Assembly (NCBI GenBank): GCA_045599485.1
Contig: JAZRWA010000001.1
Location: 1-20,545 of the forward strand
Origin: Clostridia bacterium
GTDB taxonomy: Bacteria; Bacillota; Clostridia; Christensenellales; Aristaeellaceae
Length of the DNA: 20,545 nt
Direction of reading: 5' to 3'
Below the pieces are notes generated by a model that saw only the letters and a list, made by a program, of their open reading frames with translations, was not told the DNA's origin and ran no database searches. Made by a program: the position numbers and the translations under genes. Shown piece after piece: positions 1 through 16,117 of this stretch. Position 1 is the stretch's first letter; each line of letters starts with the position of its first letter.

Positions 1-1128
1 GTGAAGTGCGGTGTGACCGGCAGCCATGTGCGTGTGCTTGTCCACGGCGATGAAGAAGTATCGCAGGATGTACACGATCATCCGCACAGTCACGCCCACG
101 ATCATCACCACCATGACCACGATCATCACCACGACGACCACGGCTCTTCGCCGGAACATCCGCACAGTCATGCCCATGCTTCCCTACAGGATGTCACAAA
201 CATCATCAATTTCCTTCCCGTTTCCGATCAAGTCAAGGCAGATGCCCACGCTGTTTATCAGATCATCGCCGAGTCGGAAAGCCGTGTCCACGGCCATCCC
301 ATCAGCGATATTCACTTTCACGAGGTCGGCACCTTGGATGCAGTGGCCGATGTAGTCGGTGTCTGCCTGCTGATGAAACAGATCGGAGCCGATCAGGTCA
401 TTGCCTCCCCCGTGCATGTCGGCAGCGGCTTTGTTCGCTGTGCACATGGCATTCTGCCTGTTCCCGCGCCGGCAACCGCCCTGATTCTGATGGATGTGCC
501 TACCTACGGCGGTCAGGTGAAGGGCGAGCTGTGCACCCCCACCGGCGCTGCGCTGCTCAAATACTTTGTTTCTTCCTTTGGGGAGCGTCCTGTGATGAAA
601 ACCACAGCCATCGGCTATGGCATGGGCAGCAAGGATTTCGAAAGGCTCAACTGCATCCGTGCATTCCTTGGTGAAACTGAAGGCAAACGGGAAGAGATCG
701 TACGCCTTGAATGCAACCTGGACGATATGACAGGAGAAGCCCTGGGCTTTGCCATGGAAGTCCTTTTTGCCAACGGCGCCAGGGATGTATACACCGCCCC
801 GATCGGCATGAAAAAAAGCCGTCCCGGAGTGATGCTGAGCGTCATCTGCCTGCCCGATGACGCCGACCGCTTGGCTGCCCTGATGCTGAAGCACACGACC
901 ACGCTTGGCGTGCGCCGTCAGGATTGCAGCCGTTATGTGCTGGAGCGTACCGTGGAAACGGTTGAAACCGTTTACGGTCCCCTCCGTATCAAGCGTGCAA
1001 ACGGTCAGGGCATTACCAAAGCCAAACCCGAATATGATGATGCCGCCGCCGCGGCACTTCAGCATCACGTGAGCCTCCATCAGGTGATGGCTGCCGCGAT
1101 GGACGTCGCCTCCAAACCCTCTCTCTGA
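1..1128 (+). CDS. larC: Nickel-pincer cofactor biosynthesis / nickel insertion protein LarC (DUF111 family), 5'-truncated by the window edge
   Basis: The frame is open from base 1. It has a His/Asp-rich tract (HDHPHSHAHDHHHHDHDHHHDDH...HPHSHAHA) followed by FHEVGTLDAVADVVG and GELCTPTGAALL motifs typical of LarC. Stop is TGA at 1126-1128. Confidence 0.85.
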   Translation: MKCGVTGSHVRVLVHGDEEVSQDVHDHPHSHAHDHHHHDHDHHHDDHGSSPEHPHSHAHASLQDVTNIINFLPVSDQVKADAHAVYQIIAESESRVHGHPISDIHFHEVGTLDAVADVVGVCLLMKQIGADQVIASPVHVGSGFVRCAHGILPVPAPATALILMDVPTYGGQVKGELCTPTGAALLKYFVSSFGERPVMKTTAIGYGMGSKDFERLNCIRAFLGETEGKREEIVRLECNLDDMTGEALGFAMEVLFANGARDVYTAPIGMKKSRPGVMLSVICLPDDADRLAALMLKHTTTLGVRRQDCSRYVLERTVETVETVYGPLRIKRANGQGITKAKPEYDDAAAAALQHHVSLHQVMAAAMDVASKPSL

Positions 1129-1213: not shown

Positions 1214-2380
1214 TCATAGGATGGCACGAAGCACATCACAGCATTCCGTCACATCCGCCTCAGTCAGCACCAGGGGTGTGCGCATCACGATGCGGTTACC
1301 CGCTTTGCCAAGCAGGATACGGTGAGTCTTTGCCCCCCGGCAAATACTGTCCGCCATCCCTTCGGGCAGCTCCAGACTAAAAAACAACCCCTTGCCGTGA
1401 ATTTTGCCCGGGATGTCTTTCTGCTTCAAAATACTCATTAGCTGCCCGGCAAAAATAGCACCCGTATTTCTGACATGCTCCAGGATTTTTTCATCGCGAA
1501 TGATGTCAAATACCAGATTGACGATACTGCACATCAGGTTGTTATCCGCGCTTCCGCCGGACAAATGCCCTGCCTTCACGCAGGAAGCCACTTCTTTCGT
1601 CATCAACAGAGCGCCCAGTCCAAAGCCGTTGGACATACCCTTGCCCGCCAGCAGCATATCGGGAACGATGCCGCACTCCTCATAGGCAAAGAAGGAACCC
1701 GTTTTGCCAAAGCCCGTCTGAATCTCGTCCAGAATCAGCACGATTCCATTCTATTGGGTATATGCCCTCAGCCACTGCCAATATTCACGACTCGGCGTAT
1801 CCATGCCGCTGAGTGCCTGATACGGTTCTATGATCACCGCCGCGATCTTATGTCCATCCCCTGCGGCCGGCTCAAATGCGCGCCCATCGGCGGGATCATC
1901 CCAGAACCGTACATGCTGCAGACCGGAACCGAACCCGTCCTTCCGGTGAGGTGTATCGCTGATGAAGGCGCCTGCAAAGCTGCGTCCATGCAGCGCGTTA
2001 CGGAAACTGACGATTTCCTCCCTACCGGTATACCTGCGGGCAATTTTGATTGCCCAGTCCACCGTTTCGCCGCCGCTACCGGCGATCATGATCTTGTCAA
2101 AATCGTGATGGGTGACCTCCATAAAATTGCGGATCAGTTTTTCCTTGGCTTCACTGAACATTCCCGCATGACAGAGCAGCTGTGTCTGCATCAATTCCGC
2201 TGTACCGGCGGTAAAGCGGGGATGCCGATACCCCAGAATACAGGAAATATCATTCAGGCACAGATACTCCTCCCCTTTTTCATCCACAAACCGCGCGCCG
2301 TGTGCGTCGGTAAACACAGGCTGATCGCCCATTTCGGTATACGTGGCAAGGTGCTGTTGGATATTCTCAAATCGCTCCAT
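1214..2380 (-). CDS. Class-III PLP-dependent aminotransferase (acetylornithine/GABA aminotransferase-like), read through one in-frame TAG
   Basis: ORFs 1751-2440 and 1214-1741 share one frame and are separated only by TAG (1751-1753). The joined protein reads ...WLRAYTQ[TAG]NGIVLILDEIQTGFGKTG..., which is the conserved DE(I/V)QTGFGRTG block. SGGETVDWAIKIAR, ALHGRS and the PLP-lysine region LLAGKGMSNGFGLG are also present. AGGAG lies 9 nt before the ATG at 2378-2380. Stop is TGA at 1214-1216. Confidence 0.8.
1751..1753 (-). other. In-frame TAG codon (putative sense codon) in the aminotransferase
   Basis: cta on the + strand is TAG on the coding strand, with context acc caa TAG aat gga. The same frame continues on both sides. 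Confidence 0.85.
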
Positions 2381-3511: not shown

Positions 3512-4291
3512 ATGAGAATACTGGTCACCGGCCCGGATGGATTTGTTGGAAAACATGTGATGAAAGCGATCCCGGAAGCGATCGCAGTGCCAAAGCTTCG
3601 CGGCGGCAAAGAAGAAGTCGCCGAGCGTGTAAAAGATGCCGATGTGATCATTCACACCGCCGCTATTGCAAGGATGGCGTTGTGTGAGGCGGATCCCGAG
3701 GCGGCTTATAAAGCCAATGTTCTCCTTCCGATGTGGATCGCCGAGGCAGCGCCGAAAGCGAAACTGTTTATGCTATCTTCCGATCAGGTTTACAACAACA
3801 GTAAAGAAAACGGCCCCTTCCGTGAAGAAATGGCCTGCCCCGGCAATGTCTATTCCAGATTAAAGTTGGAGATGTAGCAAAAGGTTCTGGCGATTTCTCC
3901 TTCAGCGGTAATGCTTCGCGCAACATGGATGTTTGATCGGGAATGGGGATATTTGGCCAATATGCAGTCCTCGCAAGGTGATATCGTTGTCCCCGATCAG
4001 TACCGTGCGGTGACGTATATCCGCGAAGTAGCAGAAAACATTGCAAAAATGGTGCAGATGGAAAAAGAAGGGCATGGCGTTCGCGGCGGTGTATACAACT
4101 TTGGCAGTGAGACTGATCTTCCTATGATGTCCTTGATGCAGGAGACCGCAAAACTGATGGGGCTCCGCAAAAAGCTGGTGCCGGGCGAACGAGCGCATGA
4201 CCTGTGGATGGATTGCAGCGCATTGCGTGCACAGGGCATCTCCTTCAGTAACAGTCTGGATGGGATCAAACGTTGTTTACAGGAAGAATGA
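3512..4291 (+). CDS. RmlD-like NAD(P)-dependent sugar-nucleotide reductase/epimerase (extended SDR), read through one in-frame TAG
   Basis: ORFs 3512-3877 and 3911-4291 share one frame and are joined by TAG at 3875-3877. It has an N-terminal Rossmann motif (ILVTGPDGFVG), and the catalytic YxxxK block reads NVYSRLKLEM[TAG]QKVL...MLRATWMF (compare RmlD YGxTKxxGE...RTSWVY). GAAGGAG RBS precedes the start. Stop is TGA at 4289-4291. Confidence 0.8.
3875..3877 (+). other. In-frame TAG codon (putative sense codon) in the RmlD-like gene
   Basis: Context is gag atg TAG caa aag. It falls at the position of the conserved Glu four residues after the catalytic Lys of the YxxxK motif. Confidence 0.85.
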
Positions 4292-4882: not shown

Positions 4883-7399
4883 ATGAATAATGACATTCAA
4901 AACCCGCCGGAGAAAATCAAAATCCGGGGCGGGCGGGTGCACAATCTGAAAAATATTGATGTGGATATCCCGCTGCACAAGATCGTAGGCATCGCCGGCG
5001 TGTCCGGTTCCGGAAAATCCTCTTTAGCGCTTGGTATTCTGTACGCAGAGGGCTCCAGGCGCTATCTGGAATCCCTGTCAACCTACACGCGCAGAAGGAT
5101 GACGCAGGCCGAAAAAGCCCAGGTGGATGAAGTTCTCTATGTTCCCGCCGCACTGGCGCTTCGTCAGCGTCCCGGGGTTCCCGGTATTCGCAGCACATTC
5201 GGTACAGGCACAGAGCTGCTGAACAGCCTTCGTCTGATGTTCTCCCGCCTTGCTTCTCATCGCTGCCCGAATGGACATTATGCACCGCCCTCTTTGAATG
5301 TTGCTGCCGGGCTGGACCTTGTCTGCCCGTTGTGCGGCATACATTTCTTTGCCCCCGGCGCGGAAGAACTGGCCTTTAACAGTCAGGGCGCCTGCAAACG
5401 CTGCGACGGCACCGGCGTGGTACGCACCGTAGATGAAACAACCCTTGTTCCGGATGATTCCCTCACGATCGATGAGGGCGCAGTGGCCCCATGGCAGACG
5501 CTGATGTGGTCGCTGATGAAGGATATTGCCCGCGAAATGGGGGTGCGTACGGATGTCCCCTTCCGTGAGCTGACCGAAGAAGAAAAAGCCATCGTATTCC
5601 ATGGCCCCGCGGTCAAGAAAAAGATCATCTACCAGAACAAAACCAGCGGCGCCGCGGGCGATATGGATTTTACCTATTTCAATGCCACCTATACCGTGGA
5701 AAATGCCCTGTCAAAGGTCAAAGACGAGAACGGTATGAAGCGGGTGGAAAAATTTTTGCGTCAGGATGTGTGTCCTGATTGCGGCGGCACAAGGCTGAGT
5801 GACGCTGCCCGAGCACCGAAGCTTCGGGGAATCTCCTTGGCGGATGCCTGCACCATGACGCTCTCCGATCTGGTGCAGTGGGTGGACGGCATTCCCGCTT
5901 CACTTCCCGAAGAGATGCGCCCGATGGCATTCAGCATATGCGAATCGTTCATGAACGCTTCAAAACGGCTGACCGATCTGGGGTTATCCTATCTGACGCT
6001 GGATCGTGCCGCTTCCACGCTTTCCACCGGTGAAAGACAGCGGATGCAGCTGGCCCGCGCCGTGCGCAACCGTACGACCGGCGTTCTTTATGTTCTGGAT
6101 GAACCGTCCATCGGTCTGCATCCTTCCAACCTGGAAGGACTTACAGGCGTGATGCATGATCTGCTCAATGACGGCAATACCGTTATTCTGGTCGACCACG
6201 ACACCAACGTGCTGAAGGAAGCGGACTGGCTCATTGAAATGGGACCGGATGCCGGTGCGGGCGGCGGAACGATCATCGCCCAAGGGACGCTTGAGCAAGT
6301 GGAAAAAGATCCGAATTCCCGGATCGGCGGTTTTCTGAGCGGTGAAACGACGATCAACATACGAAACCCTGTTTCCGCGGAAAAGATGTTCGAACTGGGG
6401 ACGATCCACCTTTCGACCGCTCCGATTCATACGGTCAAGCCGCTGGAGGCAGACTTTCCCAAAGGCAGATTGATCGTCATCACAGGTGTTTCCGGTTCCG
6501 GCAAAACAACTTTGATACTCGAAAGCCTGATTCCCGCGCTGAAAGCTTCCATCGAAGGCAGCAAACTGCCCGGTCACGTGAAGAGCATCTCCGCTGAGGG
6601 GATTTCTCAGGTCAAGCTGATCGACGCCACCCCTATCGGCATCAATGTGCGTTCCACAGTGGCAACCTATGCCGATGTTCACGATGAACTCCGCAAGGTG
6701 TTCGCGCGCACCCCGGACGCAAGGGAACGCGGCTATAAGGCCGGAGATTTTTCCTATAATACCGGTTCACTGCGCTGTCCCACCTGTGACGGCACCGGCA
6801 GCATCAGTCTGGACGTGCAGTTTCTCCCGGATGTGGATATTCCCTGCCCCAATTGCCGCGGCTCCCGATACAGCAAGGATGCCGGGCTCGTGCGCCGTAT
6901 TCCGAAAAAGGGCGGACAGGCAAACACGCTGCCCGAGCTGATGGATATGAGCGTGACCGAAGCCCTGGCCGCTTGTGCCGATCTGCCGCTGGTATCCCGC
7001 CGTTTGCAGGTGCTGCAGGACCTGGGGCTGGGCTACCTGACGCTGGGTGAAGAAACGCCAAGTCTTTCCGGCGGCGAAGCACAGCGCCTCAAGCTGGCCA
7101 GTGAGATGGGCAAAGGACAGTCTGACTCGGTATTTGTCTTTGATGAACCCACCATCGGTCTGCATCCCCTGGATGTGAAAACGCTGCTGGGTGTATTCAG
7201 CCGACTGATTGAAAACGGTGCAACCGTCATCGTCATCGAGCATGATCTGGATGTCATCAAAAATGCGGACTATATCATCGATATGGGGCCCGGCGGCGGT
7301 GTCCTCGGCGGACAGATCATTGCCCAGGGAACACCTGCGGATGTTTGCAAAAATCCGTAGAGCCTGACCGGAAAATATCTGAAGGATCAAAAAGTATAA
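4883..7399 (+). CDS. UvrA-like ABC ATPase (excinuclease A paralog lacking the UvrB-binding domain), read through TAG near the C-terminus
   Basis: It has two ABC modules: Walker A GVSGSGKSS twice, signatures LSTGERQR and LSGGEAQR, and Walker B LYVLDEPS and VFVFDEPT. CxxC zinc modules are present. GGAG lies 8 nt before the ATG at 4883. The standard-code ORF ends at TAG 7358-7360, but the conserved UvrA tail SLTGKYLK follows in frame to TAA at 7397-7399. Confidence 0.85.
7358..7360 (+). other. In-frame TAG codon (putative sense codon) near the UvrA-like C-terminus
   Basis: Context is aat ccg TAG agc ctg. Twelve further codons (SLTGKYLKDQKV) then lead to TAA. Confidence 0.75.
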
Positions 7400-7476: not shown

Positions 7477-7506
7477 GGAGCGGGACAAGCATCCCGCTCC
7501 TTTCTT
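7477..7506 (+). terminator. Rho-independent terminator downstream of the UvrA-like gene
   Basis: GGAGCGGGA (7477-7485), loop CAAGCA, then TCCCGCTCC (7492-7500), followed by TTTCTT. Confidence 0.6.
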
Positions 7507-7708
7507 GCATAATCTGTCTCATATTCCTGAATAAATCCCTTCGCTTTCAAGGAAAACGATGGATTGCCCTTACCTTGCAATGCTTCCTTCGGTAACGAAA
7601 TTCAATAACAATCGCCTTTCGAGCGTTCCGTATTGCAGATTCTGTTCAATTACGGTCTTAGGCGTCCTTGCATAAGCATATGCTAATGATTGCAGTTAGA
7701 TTATCTAT

Positions 7709-10838: not shown

Positions 10839-11756
10839 TCAATCCGCAGGTGAACGGAAAAACTGCTGTGCATATTCTATGAAGCAGCGCATCGCATTCG
10901 TGATGTATTTGCGATGATGATGTGCGATCGCTACCTTCATTGTCTGGTCCTCATGGCCCTCCAGAATACAGTAGACAGGCTTACGGAGCTTTGTCGGTTC
11001 GATCCATGTGGATACTTCGCCAATAAAGGCGCAGCCGATGTTGGCCGCTACCAGCAGATGGACCAAACCGGGATTGGACGTTTCCAGTGCTGTGTACATC
11101 GGGACTTCGTATTTCCGAAAGACTTCCTGTGTATATTCGCGAAGATATCCCGACGTACCGATGATAAAGGGCTCATTGCGTATAGCATCAAACGTGATGA
11201 TCGGATACGGAGCGGAATCGGCCGTCCGGACATGGGCAAGCGCGTTTGATTCCGGTGGGAGTGCCAGCAAAATCGGCTCGTGATGAATGATGTAATAGGT
11301 CAGTTTGGTGTCATTGGAGTTATAGCTGAAACCTATATCCCCTTCTCCGTTCAGCAGCAAAGTTTCGACTTCATAGGAATCGACCTCCCGGATATGAACC
11401 TGGATATCCGGATATCTGCTCATAAACCCCGGCAGCAGATAAGACAACGTAATGAAGGACTTTGCTTTTGTTACGACCAGGGTCAGCTCGTTTTTTTCAT
11501 TGGCGATCTTCATCTCACTGATGGAATTATGATACTAAAGGAGCATGTTCCGGGCGCGTGACAGAAATGCTTTGCCCGCCTCGGTGAGCGCAATGCGGTT
11601 ACCGTTTCGGATAAAGAGCTGAACACCCATCTCCCGCTCAAGATGTGACAACTGCTGACTGAGCGCAGATTGCGTGATGAACAGCCGGTCTGCCGCTTTG
11701 GTGATACTTCCACAGTCACAGATGCGGATAAAATACTCAATCTGTGTAAGATTCAT
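10839..11756 (-). CDS. LysR family transcriptional regulator, read through one in-frame TAG
   Basis: ORFs 11535-11762 (HTH: LTQIEYFIRICDCGSITKAADRLFITQSALSQQLSHLEREMG) and 10839-11513 (substrate-binding domain) share one frame and are joined by TAG at 11535-11537. AGGAG lies 8 nt before the ATG at 11754-11756. Stop is TGA at 10839-10841. Confidence 0.85.
11535..11537 (-). other. In-frame TAG codon (putative sense codon) in the LysR regulator linker
   Basis: Coding-strand context is ctc ctt TAG tat cat. It lies between the HTH domain and the effector-binding domain. Confidence 0.85.
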
Positions 11757-14416: not shown

Positions 14417-16117
14417 TTATTCTGTCATCCAAATCGAATCCAGATATTCCATGCGCATAGCCAAGAATGTGCGGATATATTCGATATTTGCAATAAAATC
14501 TTCTCCCGTTTGTCCCGGAAAATCAGGATTATTAAAAGTTGGCCATCTCAGAAAGTTCATGTTTGCCGCTGCGGTCAAGAAGTCGCGATATGCATCCAGT
14601 GAACGCAGACGGACATTCTATTCCGACAATCGATAGGACAGCAAAACCTCCATCAAGGGACGGTAGGTGGTCACATACGCCTCCTTAACGGCTTCTACAA
14701 ATTCCGGATGTGTATACAACTGTGCAAACCAGCATGTGTTGCGGGAATCTTTCTATGCAGCAAACAGGCCATAGGGATCGTTCAGCGTGCCATATAATGG
14801 GTCCATTTCTGCTGAACTGTATAATCCATATGCGTTATCATAATCCCAAACCGGTCCGAAAAACAACTTCTCACTGATATAATCATTATACTTGTATAAA
14901 TAATAGCTTGTGCGGTTCGCATCCAGGTTTTTACTGATTTCTTCAATTAGATACTTCCCGACAAGTGAATCCTTGTCGGCAATTTCAAAAAAGTGTTTAC
15001 CGGATTCCGGATCAATGCCGTCATCCGCCATAATTGCATTTTCAAAACGCTGCACCAACGAACTGATATAGCGCACCTGCGCCCTTGAAGCATATTCCGG
15101 CGTCTTTAACAGCACAGCCTGACCTCCCTTGGTAACGAAGCCGCTGCCGCTGTCAGTATATCGATAACTGAGTTCAAGCGTCATCAAATAGCCGCCAGTA
15201 ATATCTTCCGGATTAACGGGGATGTCGTAGTATTTAATTGTATCGGCTCGGTACTTCAAGGTACCCAGATGATCGTAGCTGCTGATTCTCTTTTTATTGA
15301 CTTTTTGGGTCTCCTATTGAAGATCGATAATGTTTACCCGTTTCTTCCCCTGCTAAACTTTTTCGGTCAGCAAATACGTTCCATAATAAATACGATTCGC
15401 ATAAACATCAACAAAGCGATAGTCCGTAGTATACTTCATATTCGCCGCCTCAGCCATATCATAGGTGATCGCATTGCGAATCATGGAATTATCACGGTAA
15501 GATGGAATAAGCAGCCATACTTTAGCAGAATCCATATCCAAAATCGGAGATTTTTCAAGCAATTTCACCTGGAACGGCGTTTTTTCCCATTTGAACGATG
15601 AATTTCCTCTTCCACGGATATACTCAAAACTGCCAGAATGGAAAACCATGCCGTCTTCATCCATCACGACCCACTATCCCGGCTCTTTATTTGTTTTCCT
15701 CACTTGCAAATAATCAAGATTGCCGCTCTTCGTACGAAAAAACACAGCACCGATATTTTGGCTTTGCAAAATATTTAATGTATATGTCTCATCTTTACAC
15801 TGAACCAGTAATTTTTCTCCGGGTACGAATGCATCCGTAACCGTATCATTTTTTATTATTTTGCCATTAATCGTAACCGACTATGCCCCTCCTGTAAGAT
15901 GCATGTGCAGTTTTGATGTGTCAAACCCGGAAGGAAGAAACAAATAATACTCACCTTGATAGCGATACCACCGAACTGCCGCGGTCGGAATGGGATCTTT
16001 TGTACTCCATGTTGGAATTGCGTCCCAAACATAGATAAAATTCAATTCTGCAGCATAACAATTCCACGAGATTAGCAAAAGTAAAACCGTTACGAAAAAA
16101 ACAATATATCGTTTCAT
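14417..16117 (-). CDS. CotH kinase family protein (secreted), read through six in-frame TAG codons
   Basis: One frame is open for 567 codons if TAG is read as sense. The standard-code fragments 15881-16117, 15353-15667 and 14753-15259 are all in this frame. It has a signal peptide (MKRYIVFFVTVLLLLISWNCYAA), the CotH hallmark YYLYKY...GPVWDYDNAYG, and AGGAG 6 nt before the ATG at 16115-16117. The true stop is TAA at 14417-14419. Confidence 0.8.
14618..14620 (-). other. In-frame TAG codon 6 in CotH
   Basis: Coding context is tcg gaa TAG aat gtc (SYRLSE[TAG]NVRLRSLDAY). The frame stays open for 66 more codons to TAA. Confidence 0.75.
14753..14755 (-). other. In-frame TAG codon 5 in CotH
   Basis: Coding context is gct gca TAG aaa gat (YGLFAA[TAG]KDSRNTCWF). 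Confidence 0.8.
15314..15316 (-). other. In-frame TAG codon 4 in CotH
   Basis: Coding context is ctt caa TAG gag acc (NIIDLQ[TAG]ETQKVN). Confidence 0.8.
15353..15355 (-). other. In-frame TAG codon 3 in CotH
   Basis: Coding context is aaa gtt TAG cag ggg (YLLTEKV[TAG]QGKKRV). Confidence 0.8.
15674..15676 (-). other. In-frame TAG codon 2 in CotH
   Basis: Coding context is ccg gga TAG tgg gtc (NKEPG[TAG]WVVMDEDG). Confidence 0.8.
15881..15883 (-). other. In-frame TAG codon 1 in CotH
   Basis: Coding context is ggg gca TAG tcg gtt (LTGGA[TAG]SVTINGK). Confidence 0.8.

Follow-up and report, generated by a model that had tools for sequence, protein, structure and literature searches.

A conserved UvrA tail beyond an in-frame TAG points to UAG as a probable glutamate codon in two related uncultured Clostridia-like bacteria

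Background

Does the TAG codon that seems to close a uvrA-like gene in an uncultured Clostridia-like bacterium really end the protein, or is it read as an amino acid? The gene lies in a stretch of 20,545 nucleotides (contig JAZRWA010000001.1, positions 1 to 20,545, of GenBank assembly GCA_045599485.1), here called the window, and encodes a class II UvrA paralogue, that is, a UvrA2-like protein. Under the standard bacterial code (code 11) it stops at a TAG, and directly beyond this codon, in the same frame, there is a C-terminal tail of the kind found in UvrA proteins. A sequence-only reading of the window had proposed read-through of this stop. The answer reached here is sharper, namely that TAG is used as a sense codon throughout the genome, and not as a leaky stop in one gene; moreover, judging from the alignments, UAG is very probably read as glutamate (Glu) in the source organism and in a related one, as the code of a whole lineage.

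Such a code would apparently be new for bacteria. The bacterial stop codon reassignments in the literature searched all concern UGA, which is changed to Trp or Gly (PMC8629427; PMC13462651), and the gTranslate preprint (May 2026) adds only a genome-wide change of UAG to pyrrolysine (Pyl) in archaea. Kivenson et al. (bioRxiv 10.1101/2024.09.30.615893) give three codes as known in Bacteria, where TAG is a stop outside a few Pyl proteins. Recoding of TAG, as far as the literature searched goes, is confined to phages (Gln), archaea (Pyl) and eukaryotes, and no report of a bacterial UAG-to-Glu code was found in open-access papers and bioRxiv, an earlier report elsewhere being possible.

Results and discussion

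The end of the UvrA2-like gene

The gene runs from 4883 to 7399 on the forward strand and comprises 838 codons, including one internal TAG, with TAA as its real stop. Its 3'-end reads AAA AAT CCG TAG AGC CTG ACC GGA AAA TAT CTG AAG GAT CAA AAA GTA TAA, and the 2.5-kb open reading frame (ORF) is translated there as ...GTPADVCKNP, the TAG, SLTGKYLKDQKV and the stop. The TAG occupies 7358-7360 of the forward strand, and the conserved tail together with the TAA at 7397-7399 occupies 7361-7399, just as the sequence-only reading had described. The protein-database entry of this gene (P0002, code 11) is cut at the TAG and has 825 amino acids (aa). An intrinsic-terminator-like hairpin with a T-rich tail lies at 7477-7510 of the forward strand, 78 nt past the TAA and hence 3' of the extended ORF; it has nine pairs, seven of them G-C, and is a match to the consensus only.

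The encoded protein carries the Pfam domains ABC_tran and UvrA_DNA-bind. With phmmer it aligns end to end with D. radiodurans UvrA2 (PDB 2vf7; query residues 12-834 to chain residues 16-838), and with the class I UvrA 2r6f in two blocks that skip residues 144-268 of the latter, the UvrB-binding region. As in the known class II UvrAs, such as UvrA2 (2vf7) and the drug-resistance UvrA-like protein Ecm16 (PDB 7sh1), the protein has two ABC modules and no UvrB-binding domain, and the SxTGxYL tail is there as soon as the TAG is translated; these features, together with zinc modules in the ATPases, mark the class. With this codon translated nothing about the protein is unusual and only its annotation is truncated; it is possibly a UvrA-like protein of the drug-resistance type.

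The alignments to solved UvrAs do not break off at the TAG column but extend over the tail (2r6f, ...KESHTGRYLK; 3pih, ...NPHSYTGRFLKN; 9ga5, ...PASYTGKFLA), so that the tail motif aligns after the TAG. The tail is also present in more than 100 UvrA orthologues (84-91% identity; length 835-842 aa), some of them with the identical 8-mer SLTGKYLK. The sequence-only reading had called SxTGxYLK the usual extreme C-terminus of UvrA; the motif does lie near the C-terminus, but it is not always the last element, since several UvrAs run 3-30 residues further. To characterize the TAG column itself we took 80 orthologue loci from species-representative genomes, 75 of which were matched by the motif search. 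A sense codon stands in the column in 75 of 75, and S-x-T-G-x-[YF] then follows in all of them. The residues are E in 30 (GAG 16, GAA 14), D in 11, N in 8, R in 7, A in 7, Q in 5, K in 3, S in 2, H in 1 and F in 1. Not one of the 75 stops at this column and lacks the tail, the pattern that the sequence-only reading had named as speaking against it; the claim that the tail is evidence of read-through is thus supported.

The paralogue itself looks widely transferred. Copies of 75-87% identity occur in metagenome-assembled genomes (MAGs) labelled Clostridia, Bacteroides/Alistipes, Treponema, Akkermansia, Gastranaerophilales and Acidaminococcaceae, the best match in a scan of genome contigs having 87% identity. 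On the contig of the closest orthologue (L096) the gene adjoins a phage-type integrase and has no neighbours in common with the window, for which reason this contig is uninformative about the host. Several UvrA matches (P0001, P0018, P0029, P0060 and P0069) are 1167-1433 aa long, far above 840 aa. They resemble an internally duplicated protein or a class II UvrA fused to a class I UvrA, and may be real fusions or else chimeras of assembly or gene calling.

In-frame TAG codons in the window

Across 6,310 codons the window holds ten in-frame TAGs, distributed over five genes, and neither an in-frame TAA nor an in-frame TGA, while all 17 genes terminate at TAA or TGA and none at TAG. Reading TAG as sense makes all five genes full length. 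Besides the UvrA2-like gene they are an RmlD-like NAD-dependent reductase (3512-4291, forward strand), whose TAG at 3875-3877 is crossed by the Pfam domain RmlD_sub_bind (residues 1-221); a LysR-family regulator (10839-11756, reverse strand), whose TAG at 11535-11537 (first base 11537) is flanked by the Pfam domains HTH_1 and LysR_substrate; a class III aminotransferase (1214-2380, reverse strand), whose TAG at 1751-1753 (first base 1753) is crossed by Aminotran_3 (residues 22-388); and a CotH-family protein of 566 codons (14417-16117, reverse strand) with six TAGs (first bases 15883, 15676, 15355, 15316, 14755 and 14620) and the Pfam domain CotH at residues 167-559. Full-length CotH homologues have 561-578 aa, to be compared with the 566-aa product of the window. 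TAG makes up about 2.7% (10/377) of the Glu codons of the window if it is counted among them. No flanking nucleotide motif is common to the ten TAGs, which rules out a motif-specific sequencing artefact.

The CotH gene has six of the ten TAGs in its 566 codons, where the average over the window predicts about 0.9, and most of them fall in variable columns; fast evolution or low expression of this gene may be behind the excess.

A second recoded chromosome

A truncated CotH match (P0191) led to a 42-kb Logan contig from run SRR27361835 (loci L089 and L097), on which the code-11 gene calls are visibly fragmented and TAG as sense merges the pieces into full-length genes. Four TAGs lie in a GGDEF-EAL protein, two each in ScpA, ParB and DnaA, and one each in an M50 peptidase, a metallophosphatase, NAGPA, CotH and a TPR protein. 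In L089, 17 genes with 5,935 codons contain 14 in-frame TAGs, no TAA and no TGA, the TPR gene adding one more (15 in total); their terminators are TGA in ten, TAA in seven and TAG in none, and the TAG share of Glu codons is about 4.2% (14/331). Since the contig carries the chromosomal origin region (parA, parB and dnaA) as well as scpA, it is the chromosome itself, and not a phage, that is recoded.

The organism of the window and that of L089 share a cluster of genes for NAGPA, a leucine-rich repeat (LRR) protein and CotH with protein identity of 52-65%, and such values indicate that the two are deeply diverged. Pooled, they give 25 in-frame TAGs in about 12,000 codons, in which neither TAA nor TGA occurs in frame and frameshifts are absent. 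The recoded contigs have a G+C content of about 51-52% and 1.6-2.4 TAGs per 1,000 codons, and there is no sign of genome reduction.

Two general detectors were also tried. One that measures the openness of the frame past each type of stop had to be given up, as it does not discriminate at about 50% G+C, where controls gave 30-45% for all three stops. The coding potential downstream of stops, computed from codon usage, separated them in L089 (four of five TAGs versus none of 22 TAA and TGA; controls 6-8%); on the short fragments of the window, however, this test is weak, and homology was therefore relied on.

The LRR protein is intact (327 aa) in L089 itself, and split into 212 aa and 107-110 aa (P0546/P0550, P0547/P0548) in a 54,469-bp NCBI MAG contig and a 12,151-bp ENA contig of the same lineage, probably by another strain-specific TAG. 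As for the GGDEF-EAL protein (378-2675 of L089, reverse strand), its GGDEF motif is degenerate (RL-TAG-DDHF, the TAG standing at the position of the first Gly), and going by this motif its diguanylate cyclase half is probably inactive.

The amino acid for which TAG stands

The columns of well-conserved genes point to Glu. In the RmlD-like reductase the TAG takes the place of the Glu of YxxxKxxxE in all PDB alignments shown (9gpi, 1vl0 and three MAT2B chains). In the LysR regulator the codon is GAG in the orthologues L081, L087 and L088, which are uninterrupted, 305 aa long and of 88% DNA identity. In the aminotransferase the column contains E 46, K 20 and Q 16 among 135 homologues, the nearest of which have E. 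The genes of L089 agree: DnaA reads SNIR-TAG-LEG against RELEG in B. subtilis and REIEG in Aquifex, both solved structures; ScpA reads F-TAG-GPMDMLL against FEGPLDLL in three solved homologues; the TAG of CotH aligns with E145, which is invariant in 101 of 101 aligned sequences; and at the four sites where ParB and DnaA of L089 carry TAG, the syntenic relative L090 (NCBI GCA_963614755.1), whose genes are intact, has E, N, E and E. The six CotH columns of the window are more mixed (D/E/S/K; S/A; Q 59/E 33; K 61/E 25; T/V/I; D/A/P). Summed over 18 TAG columns, the log-odds score is +26.8 bits for Glu, followed by Asp with -3.9, Lys with -6.3 and Gln with -16.8.

The dnaA gene allows a comparison at the codon level, for which L089 and four other independently assembled runs, with about 93% DNA identity to L089, were used. 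At codon 297 all five independent assemblies, from five sequencing runs, have TAG. Codon 302 corresponds to the E of RELEG; L089 has TAG there, the four sister strains have GAA, and L090 has GAG. A TAG shared by five runs, together with this exchange of TAG for GAA, rules out an error of sequencing or assembly. In the databases DnaA of the L089 lineage is stored as two pieces of 297 and 114 aa.

Terminator usage and TAG-poor relatives

No TAG terminator occurs in the 34 genes of the window and L089 taken together, against 179 in 1,156 long ORFs of the control loci, or about 15% (Fisher p = 0.006). Three relatives with intact genes and apparently the standard code (L090, L098 and L099) share the order ParB, ParA, a 158-164-aa ORF, DnaA and aminotransferase; their G+C content is 54-58%, and their DnaA is 59-63% identical to that of L089. 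TAG terminates 0 of 16, 0 of 19 and 1 of 20 of their genes, respectively, i.e. 1 of 55 in total, which is again below the control rate (Fisher p = 0.003), and the single TAG terminator in L099 is a genuine stop. This suggests that TAG stops had grown scarce across the wider clade by the time Glu took over the codon, and the low-TAG relatives may represent the TAG-depleted stage preceding reassignment.

Taken at the level of sequence comparison, these data show TAG to be a sense codon in both genomes, with Glu-like behaviour, and never a terminator in the sample available. Of the marks of an alternative code, the data display in-frame TAGs with homology on both sides, the absence of TAG terminators and consistent Glu columns.

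Several observations weigh against Glu as the meaning of UAG, or against a complete reassignment. A number of TAG columns are occupied by other residues in homologues (S/A, T/V/I and D/A in CotH, N in ParB), though these are variable columns, and one CotH column is Gln in 50 of the 50 nearest homologues, with Glu in 33 more distant ones. A sample of 34 genes also leaves room for occasional TAG terminators. Finally, ARAGORN detected no tRNA(CUA) in the window or in L089/L097, about 50 kb of lineage DNA with no tRNA genes at all, and a guessed pattern for the anticodon arm of a tRNA-Glu with CUA, CACCKCCCTCTAACGGMGGTA, had no match in viral and JGI metagenome contigs; this last result says little, since the NAGPA protein of the window is also without a relative in the metagenome collection. 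ARAGORN likewise found no tRNA(CUA) in 43 other loci.

Proposed mechanism

By analogy with the known reassignments (tables 4 and 25 and phage code 15), a dedicated tRNA that has the anticodon CUA and carries Glu would read UAG, and release factor 1 (RF1) would be lost or inactive at this codon. All termination would then take place at TAA and TGA; the TAG at 7358 would specify one residue, probably Glu, ahead of the SxTGxYLK tail, and translation of the UvrA2-like product, 838 codons long, would end at the TAA at 7397-7399. As to the history, TAG stops would first have become scarce across the wider clade, leaving a free codon that would then have been captured for Glu. The anticodon is an identity element for the bacterial glutamyl-tRNA synthetase (GluRS). 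For this reason a tRNA-Glu bearing CUA may depend on compensating changes or on a second GluRS. In Clostridia the route through a non-discriminating GluRS and GatCAB leaves some room for Gln, while the columns argue against Gln as the principal meaning.

The full proposal is more demanding than the reading of UAG as Glu, and we consider it reasonably likely: the first natural bacterial code in which UAG stands for a standard amino acid, Glu, shared by two or more deeply diverged members of an uncultured gut/rumen clade of Clostridia, which would have arisen by codon capture after near-loss of the TAG terminator and would be read by a novel tRNA-Glu(CUA), with RF1 lost.

Alternative explanations

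It seems improbable that TAG has a dual meaning, with RF1 retained and the codon suppressed only partially or depending on its context, in which case UvrA would be made in both an 825-aa and an 838-aa form. Ambiguous intermediates are a recognised path to reassignment, PMC12626013 describes ambiguous amber usage in archaea encoding Pyl, and the relative L099 keeps TAG as a true stop. However, the two recoded organisms end none of their 34 genes at TAG, and the codon lies in the cores of essential genes, twice in dnaA, where one TAG is conserved in five assemblies. Moreover, six TAGs in one CotH gene would allow hardly any full-length protein to be made if decoding were inefficient.

Somewhat less credible again is a TAG that is sense throughout the genome but ambiguous, or that means Gln or a mixture of Glu and Gln, which could come about by GluRS charging with partial amidation through GatCAB or by a code like code 15. 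Many Clostridia make their Gln-tRNA by transamidation, the change of TAG to Gln is a known phage recoding in gut communities, and the well-conserved CotH column with Gln in all the nearest homologues fits such a reading. The sum over the 18 columns, by contrast, is strongly negative for Gln; TAG stands at the invariant Glu of CotH and at Glu in most of the solved DnaA, ScpA and RmlD homologues; and close relatives exchange TAG with GAA or GAG, not with CAG or CAA. In addition, the contigs are chromosomal, as dnaA and parAB attest, and not of phage origin. Neither the phage genome nor the Gln-enriched columns that characterize code 15 were found.

A genome-wide use of TAG for Pyl, which would be the bacterial equivalent of Code 34 in archaea, is very improbable. 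In its favour, UAG to Pyl is the only reported genome-wide reassignment of UAG in prokaryotic cells, and some bacteria of the class Clostridia carry pyl genes. Neither the window nor L089/L097 contains pyl genes, which is a weak argument with so small a sample. It also counts against Pyl that the TAG columns are specific for Glu and not Lys-like, that TAG is exchanged with GAA and GAG in an invariant catalytic-site motif, and that the genes concerned (UvrA, RmlD, LysR, aminotransferase, CotH, DnaA, ScpA and ParB) include no methylamine methyltransferase. Nothing in the available sequence thus indicates pyrrolysine decoding.

Ordinary nonsense mutations (in pseudogenes, or as a tolerated 12-residue truncation of UvrA) or G-to-T artefacts of sequencing or assembly deserve almost no credit, for although a single G-to-T change turns GAG into TAG and MAG assemblies can hold errors, there are 25 TAGs with no TAA, TGA or frameshift even though GAA, the codon from which TAA would arise, outnumbers GAG, TAG is missing as a terminator, the same TAG of dnaA recurs in five independent runs, and the essential genes dnaA, scpA and parB are affected.

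Relation to known codes

With Glu thus kept as the probable meaning of UAG, the nearest parallels in bacteria are the UGA codes, i.e. table 4 (UGA to Trp in Mycoplasmatales, some endosymbionts and Eggerthellaceae) and table 25 (UGA to Gly in Gracilibacteria/Absconditabacteria). There too a stop codon is changed to a standard residue over the whole genome, two stops are left, and the change is recognised by in-frame stops at conserved sites and by the disuse of the codon as a terminator. Here, unlike in those codes, UAG would be changed to Glu, the G+C content is not low, no genome reduction is apparent, and the coding density under code 11 barely falls, TAG being rare. For this same reason heuristics based on coding density miss these organisms. 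As UAG rather than UGA is reassigned, RF1 and not RF2 is expected to be dispensable.

The gut phages with code 15 (crAss-like and Lak phages, TAG to Gln) share the codon and the kind of habitat with the present case, and they carry their own suppressor tRNA(CUA) genes. The differences are that a bacterial chromosome is concerned here, that the residue is apparently Glu and that all genes are affected and not late phage genes only. The archaeal Code 34, in which all TAG codons mean Pyl (Kivenson et al., bioRxiv 10.1101/2024.09.30.615893), is similar as a genome-wide prokaryotic change of UAG that is hard to spot by coding density, but it is found in archaea instead of bacteria, employs a non-standard amino acid and is linked with methylamine metabolism, a link that is not seen here. 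The meaning Glu for UAG is found in the eukaryotic UAR-to-Glu codes of peritrich ciliates (table 30) and Blastocrithidia nonstop (table 31), where, according to PMC12153298, cognate tRNA-Glu with altered anticodons is used. Those codes, however, are nuclear, operate with a single eRF1 and reassign UAA as well, and there is no evolutionary connection. In the engineered E. coli C321.deltaA and similar recoded strains, too, the TAG stops were removed first, RF1 then became dispensable and TAG was free for reassignment; the TAG-poor relatives with 1 in 55 resemble a natural version of this first step. The present case differs in being natural and in using a canonical amino acid.

If the proposal holds, a bacterium of free-living type whose G+C content is 51-52% would, by reading UAG as Glu, bring the number of bacterial codes to four, and for the first time among natural bacteria the release factor predicted to be dispensable would be RF1 instead of RF2. 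Such a bacterium would also offer a natural tRNA(CUA)/GluRS pair for genetic-code engineering, a natural parallel to recoded E. coli with RF1 deleted and, together with the TAG-poor relatives, a testable case for the codon-capture model. In practice, public databases currently truncate or split the genes of these organisms, as seen from the 825-aa UvrA and the two-piece DnaA.

Further features of the window

Between 7663 and 14137 (forward strand as listed) lies a six-gene cassette that serves as orthologue control for the TAG of LysR. It comprises a substrate-binding protein (SBP), two ABC permeases, the LysR regulator, an FAD oxidoreductase and a 2-hydroxyacid dehydrogenase. The cassette, with a sugar-type ABC transporter and a D-2-hydroxyacid dehydrogenase, has 88% DNA identity to the version on gut contigs with the standard code (L081-L088), and gene lengths and stop codons are identical between the two versions. 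The LysR codon is the sole change of GAG to TAG among the 31 ancestral GAG codons of the cassette. The cassette is present on at least 195 gut-metagenome contigs, including one of 3.3 Mb, and its neighbours there are mobile-element genes (HTH_17, TnpV, resolvase, ParA and Y-family polymerase).

An Rfam scan of the window returned no RNA family. At the left edge (1-1128, forward strand) a gene that runs off the window encodes what, judged from its sequence, is the C-terminal portion of a nickel-insertion protein of the LarC/DUF111 kind, and near the window start this fragment contains a very His- and Asp-rich stretch, HDHPHSHAHDHHHHDHDHHHDDHGSSPEHPHSHAH.

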